Of a DNA stretch of 64,000 nt, positions 55,852 to 57,917 are shown piece by piece. Below the pieces are notes generated by a model. The model searched no databases, was not told the origin of the DNA, and saw only the letters and a list, made by a program, of their open reading frames with translations. The stretch lies in assembly GCA_938091745.1 (NCBI GenBank), contig CALLJK010000009.1:94844-158843 (forward strand), in the 5' to 3' direction. The position numbers and the translations under genes are program-made. Positions within the stretch are counted from its first letter, which is position 1, and each line of letters opens with the position of its first letter. The DNA comes from Candidatus Bipolaricaulota bacterium (lineage in GTDB: Bacteria > Bipolaricaulota > Bipolaricaulia > RBG-16-55-9 > DRXL01).

Positions 55852-56070
55852 ATGAACGCTCTGCAGCTTGAGCTTCCCCCAGAGATCACAGCCGAGGAAG
55901 CTCGTGTGCTTCTCGCTATCAAGCTCTACGAAATGCACAAGCTCACGCTGGGGCAGGCAGCCCGCTTAGCTGGATACTCCAAGCGAGCCTTTATGGAAGT
56001 ATTAGGGAAGCACGGTGTCCCTGTGTTTGCTTACCTTCCTGAGGAGCTCCAAGAGGAGGCAGGGGCGTGA
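55852..56070 (+). CDS. UPF0175-family antitoxin inserted in the cas operon
   Basis: 72 aa. KLYEMHKLTLGQAARLAGYSKRAFMEVLGKHGVPV, paralogous to 29277..29585. 4-nt overlap with the downstream PIN-like gene. Confidence 0.6.
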   Translation: MNALQLELPPEITAEEARVLLAIKLYEMHKLTLGQAARLAGYSKRAFMEVLGKHGVPVFAYLPEELQEEAGA

Positions 56071-56519
56071 AAGAGCCGATCGTCACCAATAGCACATGTC
56101 TGATCAGCTTGGAACGTATCCATCAGTTAGGGCTTCTCCCCACTTTATTTGAGCCCGTCATGGTTCCTCCCAAAGTGCAAGAGGAGTTTGGGATCTCAGT
56201 CGCTTGGCTCACTGTAGAACATCCTCAAAACACAGCCTTAGTGATGGCCCTGAGCCAGCTTGTAGATGCCGGGGAGGCTGAGGCTATTGCCCTGGCTCTG
56301 GAGCACAAGACAGCCCTTGTGCTGGACGACCGCAAAGCGCGCCATGTCGCAAGACGCCTTGGTATTCCCATTATCGGCACTATAGGGATTCTCGTGCGCG
56401 CCAAGAGACAGGGAGCTCTCTCAAGCATCCGGCCCCAGTTGGAGGCTCTCAAGCACGCTGGTCTTCATCTGACTCCCGAACTCGAGCAAGAAGCACTCCA
56501 TCTTGCCAACGAGGGATGA
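56067..56519 (+). CDS. PIN-like (DUF3368-type) toxin inserted in the cas operon
   Basis: 150 aa. IVTNSTCLISLERI..LVLDDRKAR. Same architecture as 28784..29296. Confidence 0.6.
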   Translation: MKEPIVTNSTCLISLERIHQLGLLPTLFEPVMVPPKVQEEFGISVAWLTVEHPQNTALVMALSQLVDAGEAEAIALALEHKTALVLDDRKARHVARRLGIPIIGTIGILVRAKRQGALSSIRPQLEALKHAGLHLTPELEQEALHLANEG

Positions 56520-56522
56520 CAC

Positions 56523-57521
56523 ATGAGCCGCAGCTATTATATCTTCAAAAGCGGCACGCTCTCCCGCGAACAGAACACCGTCTATTTTGAAAACGCCGAG
56601 GGCAAGCGCCCCATCCCCGTCGAAGATATTGACGCTCTCTATATCTTCGGCGAGGTGACCCTCAACAGCAAATTTTTAGATTTTTTAGATAAGCACGGGA
56701 TCTGCGCGCACTTCTTTGATTATTACGAGCACTATTCGGGCAGCTTCGTGCCGCGCCAGCCCAAACAGTCGGGGTTCTTATTAGTGCACCAAGTGCGGCA
56801 CTATCTTGACGGCACGAAGCGTTTGGCTTTGGCGCGTGAGATCGTCGCCACAGCAACAGACAACATCTTACGCAATCTCAAGTACTACAAGAATCGCGTT
56901 GCGGACGGCGCTGCCATCGAGCAGCTCATCGCCGAGATCGAAGCTGACCAGCAGGCAATCCCGAGCGCCCGCGACTGCTTGGAATTGATGGCTCTTGAGG
57001 GCCGCATTCGTGACAAGTACTATCAGAGCTTCAATCTCATTCTCAAATTAGAAGAGCCTTTCATCAAGCGCGAGCGCCGCCCGCCCACCAACCCCATCAA
57101 CGCTTTGATCTCTTTTGGGAACTCGCTGCTCTATGCCACGACGCTCAGCGAGATCTACAGAACGCAGCTCAATCCCACTGTGAGCTTTTTGCACGAGCCC
57201 AGCGCGCGACGCTACTCGCTCAGCTTAGATCTCAGTGAGATCTTCAAGCCGATCATCGTAGACCGGACGATCTTCAAGCTGGTCAATGAGAAGATGCTGA
57301 AGCTCGACGACTTTGAGCGCGATCTGAACTATTGCTATTTAGGGGAGAGCGGGCGCAAGACGTTCGTGCAGGAGTACGAGAGCAGATTGCAGCAGACGAT
57401 CGAGCATAGAAAGCTCAAAAAGCACGTCTCATACAGGCATCTAATTCGCTTGGAGTGCTATAAGTTAGTGAAGCACATTCTTGGAGAGGAGGCGTATGAA
57501 GGGTTCAGGATGTGGTGGTGA
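56523..57521 (+). CDS. cas1: Cas1 integrase
   Basis: 332 aa. YYIFKSGTLSREQNTVYFE.. and conserved acidic catalytic residues. Confidence 0.9.
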   Translation: MSRSYYIFKSGTLSREQNTVYFENAEGKRPIPVEDIDALYIFGEVTLNSKFLDFLDKHGICAHFFDYYEHYSGSFVPRQPKQSGFLLVHQVRHYLDGTKRLALAREIVATATDNILRNLKYYKNRVADGAAIEQLIAEIEADQQAIPSARDCLELMALEGRIRDKYYQSFNLILKLEEPFIKRERRPPTNPINALISFGNSLLYATTLSEIYRTQLNPTVSFLHEPSARRYSLSLDLSEIFKPIIVDRTIFKLVNEKMLKLDDFERDLNYCYLGESGRKTFVQEYESRLQQTIEHRKLKKHVSYRHLIRLECYKLVKHILGEEAYEGFRMWW

Positions 57522-57591
57522 GTGGGAGGTTTGTTATAATTGCAAAGCCTATGAGGCTTAGGATCGACCAAGAGAGAAGGAGGGAGCAGCG

Positions 57592-57798
57592 TTGAAGAGA
57601 GCTTTCAGAGCAACAGTCTGGCAGGAAGGCGACTGGTTTGTGGCACAGTGTCTTGACGTAGATATAGCTAGCCAAGGGAAGACCGAGCAAGAAGCCCTTG
57701 AGAATCTACGAGAAGCTTTAGAGCTGCACTTCGAAGCCCCTCAGGCTACCGTCACTCCTCATGTCGTTACTATAGAGGCGGAGGTCTCTGCTGCTTAA
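57592..57798 (+). CDS. hicB: HicB-family antitoxin (RNase H-like fold, UPF0150-like)
   Basis: 68 aa. ATVWQEGDWFVAQCLDVDIASQGKTEQEALENLREALELHFE matches the HicB N-domain pattern. Confidence 0.65.
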   Translation: MKRAFRATVWQEGDWFVAQCLDVDIASQGKTEQEALENLREALELHFEAPQATVTPHVVTIEAEVSAA

Positions 57799-57917
57799 AC
57801 CACTGTCCTATCGCGAGGTCAAGAGAAAATTGGAATTGGAGATCACCGTAGGTACCTTGCGCAGTATCTTGCGACAGGCAGGCTTGAGCATCGAAGAATT
57901 TATGCATCTATAGGCCT
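57799..57917 (+). pseudogene. hicA toxin remnant (N-terminally truncated, no start codon)
   Basis: The frame translates to ..KPLSYREVKRKLELEITVGTLRSILRQAGLSIEEFMHL*, the conserved HicA C-terminus (GTLRSILKQAGL). The N-terminal catalytic His region is absent. Bounded upstream by an in-frame stop. Confidence 0.45.

Follow-up and report, generated by a model that had tools for sequence, protein, structure and literature searches.

Toxin–antitoxin genes at the junctions of a type I-B CRISPR adaptation operon in a Candidatus Bipolaricaulota genome

Toxin–antitoxin (TA) systems are generally viewed as selfish mobile modules (PMC2701414), and in the Sulfolobales vapBC pairs are interspersed in the cas cassettes, with a proposed role in maintenance (Garrett et al. 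2015, PMC4390879). We analyzed a stretch of 64,000 nucleotides from a Candidatus Bipolaricaulota bacterium (positions 94,844 to 158,843 of the forward strand of contig CALLJK010000009.1, assembly GCA_938091745.1; the whole stretch is called the window below). It contains a type I-B cas locus with TA genes at two places of its adaptation operon, namely a UPF0175/DUF3368 pair between cas4 and cas1, and hicB with a remnant of hicA between cas1 and cas2. As in the Sulfolobales, type II TA pairs with a PIN toxin, sometimes several of them, stand between cas genes, and adaptation and interference modules are exchangeable. Unlike there, the host is a bacterium, the genes lie in a type I-B adaptation operon, and the cassettes are UPF0175-COG2405 and HicBA instead of canonical VapBC. 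What the present locus adds is evidence that TA genes diverged along with cas1 and cas4 and that the same TA lineages recur at several junctions.

UPF0175 is reported to occur exclusively together with COG2405 (Matelska et al. 2017, PMC5499597). The first cassette resembles the COG2886-COG2405 family (PMC2701414, PMC5499597) in its domain pair, in having the antitoxin gene first, in a 4-nt overlap and, according to a structural model, in the PIN fold of the toxin; it differs in being placed inside a cas operon and in an Asn that replaces the first acidic residue in a sub-clade. The second cassette is comparable to described HicAB systems (TTHA1913, PDB 1WHZ; 4C26, 6G26), since the HicA of a related locus has the GSH motif and HicB probably corresponds to the N-terminal HicB/UPF0150-type fold. 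Here, however, hicB precedes hicA with an overlap of 8-11 nt, and the 68-aa HicB is without a DNA-binding domain.

Two further systems link TA elements to CRISPR-cas loci. In CCTA, a type VI-A Cas13a-HicAB system with the order hicA-CRISPR-hicB-cas13a, a tetrameric HicB is activated by Cas13a (Chen et al. 2026, PMC13448076). CCTA likewise has hicA and hicB physically within a CRISPR-cas locus, and its study also reports an orphan hicB beside cas genes. The window does not belong to this system: it has no cas13, and its hicB and hicA stand next to each other among the adaptation genes of a type I-B locus, with cas1 on one side and cas2 on the other. CreTA, as far as it is described where it is cited (PMC12737573, PMC13448076), is an RNA-based TA system that is repressed by CRISPR and safeguards type I-B cas genes; its toxin is a small RNA, and its antitoxin is crRNA-like with a repeat-like element and needs Cascade. 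By that account the likeness is conceptual, a TA element in a type I-B locus which makes the loss of cas genes costly, whereas the cassettes described here are protein–protein type II systems with no evident Cas dependence. Membership in CreTA, so described, was rejected: both cassettes encode proteins, a search for further repeat-like copies (at most three mismatches) found none outside the two arrays, and there is no Rfam match in 45500-59000.

Our best explanation, to which we assign a probability of about 0.6, is that two mobile type II TA cassettes, one of UPF0175 with a predicted PIN-fold RNase (COG2405/DUF3368) and one of a minimal HicB with a HicA mRNA interferase, were captured at junctions of the type I-B adaptation operon, in an uncultivated bacterium with relatives among metagenome-assembled genomes labelled Candidatus Fraserbacteria or Bipolaricaulota, and that their role is mainly a selfish or stabilising one. 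Judged by their families, by the layout of the operon and by the purifying selection, both cassettes may represent functional type II TA systems. The locus is an ordinary instance of a known phenomenon, seen in more detail than usual, with close relatives at several type I-B junctions. TA genes in or near cas loci are mostly written off as clutter of defence islands, or else called addiction modules without evidence. The locus and its relatives form a natural series, with the same adaptation block with or without each cassette, with toxins intact, attenuated or dead, and with effectors swapped. This series makes it testable whether TA cassettes stabilise cas modules, ride along or join in adaptation.

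The two cassettes in the adaptation operon

Related loci (denoted L and a number) were gathered by exact-sequence look-ups and two collection scans. The genes from cas4 to cas2 of the window are as follows.

55279-55803, plus strand: cas4, the upstream flank of the first TA cassette (Pfam Cas_Cas4, 3.7e-53)
55852-56070, plus strand: UPF0175 (COG2886) antitoxin of the helix-turn-helix (HTH) type, 72 aa (Pfam PF03683)
56067-56519, plus strand: DUF3368/COG2405 predicted PIN-fold toxin, 150 aa, GTG start (Pfam PF11848, AlphaFold, Foldseek)
56523-57521, plus strand: cas1, type I-B Cas1b (Pfam Cas_Cas1, 2.7e-92; NCBIfam TIGR03641, 3e-139)
57592-57798, plus strand: hicB, minimal 68-aa HicB-family antitoxin, intact, TTG start, strong Shine–Dalgarno (SD) sequence (Pfam DUF7387)
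57788-57913, plus strand: hicA remnant (translation; nucleotide alignment with the intact hicA of L102, L094 and L103)
57918-58181, plus strand: cas2 (Pfam CRISPR_Cas2, 9.5e-24)

The antitoxin of the first cassette matches the UPF0175 profile over residues 4-69 (E 3.1e-20, 72.1 bits against a cutoff of 27.9), and its gene has the SD sequence GGAGGTG 7 nt upstream. The gene lies next to a COG2405/PIN gene on the same strand, and this pairing is also present in L005, L084, L085, L086 and L119. The partner protein matches DUF3368 with its C-terminal 46 aa (E 3.7e-12, 46.4 bits against a cutoff of 27.3), and its 188 homologs are annotated as DUF3368 wherever the source names them. An AlphaFold model (AF2) built from 54 homologs reached a predicted local distance difference test score (pLDDT) of 96.4 and a predicted template modelling score (pTM) of 0.89. 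A Foldseek search with this model returned 5H4G/5H4H, 1Y82, 2MDT and 2FE1 with a probability of 1.0 and template modelling scores of about 0.55-0.6; the PIN/VapC matches include VapC4, PAE0151, PAE2754, SSO1118 and HARP. SSO1118 (2MDT) is the structural representative of the COG2405 cluster (PMC5499597). A sequence search of the PDB had no hit for the DUF3368 protein and none of relevance for UPF0175, and NCBIfam had no match for any of the four TA products. At the level of the modelled fold the assignment as a PIN-like toxin is justified, and the UPF0175/DUF3368 pair which had been proposed from the sequence to lie between cas4 and cas1 is borne out by Pfam and by this model. The 4-nt overlaps claimed along with it hold for the UPF0175/DUF3368 boundary (GTGA) and fail on either side, where cas4 and UPF0175 are 48 nt and DUF3368 and cas1 are 3 nt apart.

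Residue 8 of the DUF3368 protein (codon 56088-56090), the first canonical PIN acidic position, is Asn. Among 121 DUF3368 homologs this residue is N in 62 and D in 59, with Asn in 18 of the top 20; E40, E70 and D87 are invariant in the family alignment and D88 is conserved. The two residues alternate in patches among the homologs of this otherwise highly conserved family, and the alignment suggests repeated D/N switching at this position. Asp is found in L086 and in a paralog outside any cas locus that starts at position 28784 of the window. For the COG2405 family two to five active-site residues are listed, and the active site is incomplete in some members (Matelska 2017, PMC5499597).

The hicB product matches Pfam DUF7387 above the cutoff (3.3e-8), reaches 0.058 only with UPF0150 and has no match to HicB_lk_antitox or in NCBIfam. 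In the PDB it aligns over its full length, weakly, with 2YZT (TTHA1756; E 0.044), and the top PDB matches were spurious PPR-repeat hits. There are 663 homologs, 70-87% identical, and NCBI and JGI name the 68-aa family "HicB family antitoxin". In L102, L104, L107, L111 and L114 an intact HicA (PF07927) follows hicB directly; that of L102 matches the Thermus HicA structure PDB 1WHZ with 5.4e-7. The DUF7387 match, the naming of the family and the HicA genes of the relatives agree with the proposed intact hicB antitoxin between cas1 and cas2. Exact-sequence look-ups using Cas1 and HicB as DNA reference gave no match; in the case of HicB the TTG start is the probable cause, as an identical protein (P0001) exists in the database. 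Coding on the minus strand of the hicB-hicA segment was considered and rejected: the open reading frames (ORFs) 57505-57690 and 57770-57907 are unsupported and overlap conserved plus-strand genes.

The original prediction had described hicA as truncated at its N-terminus. This is not so: the remnant retains both ends (LLKPLSYREVKRKLE ... LEITVGTLRSILRQAGLSIEEFMHL*), that is, the N-terminal 15 and the C-terminal 24 codons, and has an in-frame internal deletion of 96 nt (32 codons) with its junction at about 57835/57836, between two TTGGA motifs (microhomology). The deletion takes out AAGFV...GSH...PRHQ, the catalytic core including the conserved His. Pfam HicA_toxin matches merely the last 16 aa, below the cutoff (E 0.0024). 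The full domain resembling a double-stranded RNA-binding domain and the His of the GSH motif are both missing, and hicA of the window is a pseudogene or remnant. Elsewhere hicA carries nonsense mutations (L108, L109 and L110), while hicB is intact in all loci compared. The erosion that had been proposed for HicB with a decayed HicA is therefore confirmed, and it is recurrent.

The remnant also lacks a canonical start codon in the region 57788-57799, having CTG where other lineages have GTG. More generally the start position of hicA is CTG, CCG or CTT in the window, L102, L094 and L103, and GTG in L104, L107, L111 and L114. The start-less hicA is intact and constrained in L102, L094 and L103, with ratios of nonsynonymous to synonymous substitution rates (dN/dS) of 0.04-0.09. 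Such constraint without a canonical start suggests that hicA is initiated at CTG or by termination-reinitiation at the overlapping hicB stop, either of which would hold toxin translation low.

The TA genes are co-oriented with cas4, cas1 and cas2 and tightly packed with them, 4 nt separating the hicA remnant from cas2, and each gene has an SD sequence ahead of it. Our scan called no sigma-70 promoter before either cassette and no terminator within 55000-58200. By eye one further element can be read directly after the cas1 stop codon, upstream of hicB.

57532-57540, plus strand: extended -10-like motif TGTTATAAT

The sigma-70 scan did not call the motif, owing to a poor -35 region; judged from its position and sequence it is a candidate promoter for hicB-cas2. 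At the equivalent site L005 has a promoter-like TTGACG-18-TATATT ahead of a type III module.

Relatives, selection and exchange at cas junctions

The order cas4-UPF0175-DUF3368-cas1 is also present in L001/L002 (TA proteins 100% identical in amino acids), L084 (93-99%), L085 (82%) and L005 (65-74%). As the arrangement recurs in these independent assemblies, it is not an assembly artefact. The UPF0175 protein is 99, 82 and 71% identical to its orthologs in L084, L085 and L005, respectively; dN/dS is 0.02-0.11 for its gene and 0.06-0.14 for the DUF3368 gene, and both genes are under purifying selection. Between the window and L085 the synonymous divergence (dS) of the two TA genes is 1.06 and 1.60, comparable to the 1.02 of cas1, from which we conclude that the pair has long been inherited together with the adaptation genes.

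In L102 hicBA lies directly 5' of cas2, with hicA intact and Cas2 98% identical; the same genes for a major facilitator superfamily (MFS) transporter and a V-type ATPase follow downstream, so that L102 is the orthologous locus in a related metagenome-assembled genome. The order in L103 is cas4-cas1-hicB-hicA-cas2, and in L094-L101 hicB(-hicA) is placed directly upstream of cas2 after a type III RAMP gene. Wherever dS is unsaturated, dN/dS of hicB and hicA is 0.04-0.13 (0.13 for hicB against L102). By its own terms the original prediction would have failed if related genomes carried these genes as ordinary neighbours away from cas loci. For the close relatives this was not found: every DUF3368 homolog found in genome or metagenome contigs with at least 61% identity is located within a cas locus. 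The same holds for five of the eight sampled HicB clusters, and a sixth adjoins a cas1 fragment.

The same lineages occur at other junctions as well. HicB clusters 72-78% identical to that of the window are found between cas3 and cas4 (L107-L110) and between cas4 and cas1 (L111-L113), and HicB and HicA are 71-78% identical between lineages with Cas1 and Cas2 merely 40-49% identical. A UPF0175-DUF3368 pair lies between cas7 and cas5 in L086, the toxin being 62% identical. In L107 (3940-4000) and L108 (3883-4000) truncated UPF0175 genes stand directly upstream of hicB, between cas3 and cas4; the L107 copy is internally deleted and that of L108 consists of the C-terminal half alone, and in both the stop and the first DUF3368 codons come next. 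Judging from these remnants, in both loci hicBA seems to have taken the place of the PIN toxin that belonged to an older cassette.

In L104-L106 hicBA lies in a TA island and is followed directly by a 44-aa N-terminal fragment of cas1. The ORF with this fragment (L104:4421-4570, also L105 and L106) has 49 aa and is 43% identical to Cas1 of the window, and the TA-rich island has a transposase. Either these loci are degraded cas loci or the hicBA cassette moved along with a piece of cas1. Two contexts are not associated with cas genes, L114 with hicBA between an alcohol dehydrogenase and an aminotransferase gene and L116 with an orphan hicB. Homologs further removed (57-63% identity) are ordinary TA cassettes of plasmids or chromosomes; the plasmid copies come from Thermus, Leptospira and Candidatus Fervidibacter, where integrases, transposases and further TA pairs are their neighbours. 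Viral contigs scanned with HicB and with the PIN protein yielded no relatives, and there is thus no sign of phage carriage for either TA lineage.

We surveyed the junctions in 80 type I-B loci retrieved with Cas1. The gap between cas4 and cas1 was at least 200 bp in 22 of 78 loci and that between cas1 and cas2 at least 150 bp in 8 of 76; an automated survey of the cas3-cas4 gap over the 80 loci was too noisy, gene order varying between type I-B variants, and was not used. Other TA inserts at cas junctions were MazE-PIN (L006), Phd-PIN (L016, L047), HipBA (L074) and DUF2281-VapC (L004), and non-TA inserts were 23S_rRNA_IVP, IS200-like transposases, a PDDEXK_3 protein, an HNH nuclease and an ATPase.

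The slot between cas1 and cas2 holds whole type III effector modules of two kinds in L003, L005 and L004, csm6 before cas2 in L083, MazE-PIN in L006 and hicBA in the window, L102 and L103 (coordinates L003:11000-18396; L004:11000-18170; L005:1760-3206; L083:1-1847; window 57522-57917). At the cas4/cas1 junction of Bacteroidota type I-B loci a 23S_rRNA_IVP gene of about 120 aa (four-helix bundle) or an IS200-like Y1 transposase is often present; these inserts were checked with Pfam in L027, L049 and L037 and judged by similarity in L057, L063, L075 and L039.

The exchange of neighbouring modules can be followed with the genes upstream of cas4, which together with those listed above make up the locus.

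47356-58181, plus strand: type I-B cas locus (ORF list; Pfam and NCBIfam)
47356-48135, plus strand: cas6a (ORF list)
48126-55209, plus strand: type I-B effector cassette, comprising cas6b, cas8b, small subunit, cas7, cas5 and cas3 (ORFs)
48126-48869, plus strand: cas6b (ORF list)
48866-49975, plus strand: Cas8b-like gene (ORF list)
49947-50462, plus strand: small-subunit-like gene (ORF list)
50484-51638, plus strand: cas7 (ORF list)
51657-52502, plus strand: cas5 (ORF list)
52447-55209, plus strand: cas3 (ORF list; confirmed by Pfam/NCBIfam)

The sequence of L001, a near-identical strain, agrees with the window to 99% over 55313-57137 (cas4-TA-cas1) and to 96% over the end of cas6a (47982-48119); between these matching blocks it holds a different type I-B cas8-cas7-cas5-cas3 cassette (L001:147-5474). 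The GC content is 0.45-0.51 in the effector cassette of the window, 0.59 in cas6a and 0.51-0.56 in the downstream adaptation and TA genes. In L083, which comes from the same sample as L001, csm6 lies directly before an identical Cas2, and the homology to the window begins at 57913, the exact end of the hicA remnant. We conclude from the comparisons with L001 and L083 that the modules next to the adaptation block are exchanged and the block itself, TA cassette included, is retained. The homology of L005 to the window ends at about 57533.

The effector cassette of the window brings its own second cas6 (cas6b). In L003 (8569-8634) and L004 (8590-8667) there is a duplicated 5' fragment of cas4, 22-26 aa long and up to 100% identical to the N-terminus of Cas4 of the window. 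It is followed in L004 by a DUF2281 antitoxin and a VapC PIN protein, in L003 by DUF2281, a VapC remnant, a small ORF and HNH, and then by the full cas4. The conserved 5' end of cas4 looks like a recombination hot spot, and the breakpoint between the window and L001 at about 55313 falls into the same region.

A probable selfish or stabilising role and rival explanations

Under the reading that the cassettes are mainly selfish or stabilising, the TA genes would be co-transcribed with the cas genes, possibly helped by TGTTATAAT. The cassettes would persist by addiction-type selection, the loss of a DNA segment with the antitoxin gene being counter-selected, and this would incidentally stabilise the cas4-cas1-cas2-leader block while effector modules are swapped. 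Such a reading agrees with what was proposed for the vapBC pairs of the Sulfolobales (PMC4390879) and with the picture of TA systems as selfish mobile modules (PMC2701414). Toxin activity would be kept low or be lost over time, leaving orphan antitoxins; we infer such an attenuation from Asn8, the non-canonical start of hicA, the hicA deletion of the window and the hicA nonsense mutations elsewhere. Several points weigh against this explanation. The Asn8 PIN protein may not be a working toxin, and its gene is still under purifying selection, which a purely selfish model does not predict. As the hicA toxin of the window is dead, the hicBA cassette cannot currently addict anything here. The UPF0175/DUF3368 pair is absent from L003 (Cas1 88% identical) and L004 (86%) and hence dispensable; the 135-140-bp spacers between cas4 and cas1 in these two loci hold no remnant of it, and no clear grouping emerges from Cas1, which is 85-90% identical among all five loci. 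Finally, our sampling favours sequences similar to the cas-embedded query, and the enrichment of TA genes in cas loci is an apparent one.

The wide gaps at both junctions in the survey and the heterogeneous content of the junctions, with transposases, nucleases, an ATPase, type III modules and several TA families, would also be expected if the junctions of exchanged cas modules gather any small mobile gene and the TA genes contribute nothing. Makarova et al. (2009) indeed saw no particularly strong link between TA systems and CRISPR (PMC2701414, authors' response). Passengers of this kind should decay, however, while the TA genes are under purifying selection and have co-diverged with cas1 and cas4 over a dS of about 1, and the same lineages recur at independent junctions; we regard neutral carriage as unlikely. 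Recurrence and constraint could also point to a function in immunity, such as the coupling of abortive infection to adaptation that the original prediction had put forward as one possibility. The two TA lineages are found at five different type I-B junctions, HicB and HicA are far more alike across loci than Cas1 and Cas2, and selection is purifying despite Asn8 and the non-canonical hicA start. The cassettes could then be accessory modules in which the toxin RNase causes dormancy during spacer acquisition or after failed interference, or in which Cas proteins or crRNA control the TA system, for which the published HicAB-Cas13a system (PMC13448076) and the hypothesis of immunity-suicide coupling (PMC3506569) can be cited. 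The position in the operon is variable, however, L003 and L004 do without the pair at similar Cas1, hicA was lost repeatedly, and homologs with 57-72% identity work on plasmids or among housekeeping genes where cas genes are absent; moreover the same junctions also hold TA families of other descent and inserts that are not TA genes, and HicB is a minimal protein of 68 aa. Such a role appears quite unlikely to us.

A stricter version, by analogy with Cas13a-HicAB, would take the cas-embedded HicBA (DUF7387-type) and UPF0175-COG2405 sub-clades as dedicated type I-B adaptation modules and not as passengers, their attenuated toxins (the Asn8 PIN protein and HicA with the non-canonical start) being controlled by or acting on Cas1-Cas2-Cas4 or crRNA. 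If true, this would explain both the purifying selection and the reappearance at several junctions of divergent type I-B loci; it is a speculative proposal which we consider very unlikely. Domestication of the antitoxins as transcriptional regulators of cas1/cas2 with vestigial toxins is highly improbable. It could account for the retention of UPF0175 and HicB next to attenuated or lost toxins, for the predicted HTH DNA-binding character of UPF0175 (PMC2701414) and for the extended -10-like motif upstream of hicB. Yet HicB, at 68 aa, would comprise just the N-terminal fold and has no domain to bind DNA, the PIN toxin shows no damage and is constrained to the same degree as its antitoxin, and in L102, L094 and L103 hicA is likewise intact under strong constraint.

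The second UPF0175/PIN pair and the surroundings of the locus

The window contains another pair related to the first cassette, outside any cas locus.

28784-29296, plus strand: PIN-like protein of 170 aa, distantly paralogous to the toxin of the cas locus, with Asp as its first acidic residue (BLASTP, hhalign)
29277-29585, plus strand: paralogous UPF0175 antitoxin, 102 aa, downstream of the toxin gene (Pfam UPF0175, 9e-12)

The toxin paralog is 31% identical to the DUF3368 protein of the cas locus (BLASTP 2e-8) and matches the DUF3368-family profile in hhalign with a probability of 96.3% (1.7e-9); it has no Pfam match. The two UPF0175 paralogs share 37% identity over 35 aa in BLASTP. The second UPF0175/DUF3368 pair which the original prediction had placed here thus consists of paralogs, but these are distant, arranged with the toxin first, and the toxin is not recognized by Pfam. 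The pair is flanked by tandem copies of one gene (28133-28697 and 29610-30364) with the shared motif NLAVMQFD.EKFVIKAVNPYTKQEEEVIGGEFGRILRHEILG; each copy consists of two overlapping ORFs, as if frameshifted, and has no Pfam match.

Rfam (gathering threshold) and Tandem Repeats Finder gave no match on 45500-59000, and the CRISPR arrays were located by pattern search instead. The remaining features around the cas locus are these.

46555-46987, minus strand: CRISPR array 1, seven identical repeats of CTTTTAATTGAACCAGTGTGGTATTGAAAC (pattern search)
58178-58207, plus strand: strong sigma-70-like promoter TTGACT-18-TATAAT (11/12), following cas2 (sigma-70 scan)
58451-58680, plus strand: CRISPR array 2, four repeats of CTTTTAATTGAACCAGTGTGGTATTGAAAC, the last degenerate (pattern search)
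58695-60095: MFS transporter, downstream of CRISPR array 2
60552-62381: V-type ATPase subunit I, with further V-type ATPase genes after it (window 58695-64000)

The promoter at 58178-58207 is probably the CRISPR leader promoter. With cas4-cas1-cas2, the probable leader promoter, an array and a Cas1 of subtype I-B, whose match to the TIGR03641 Cas1b model lies above the 304-bit cutoff, this part of the locus is a type I-B adaptation module. The two arrays sit on opposite sides of the cas locus and have the repeat in common.

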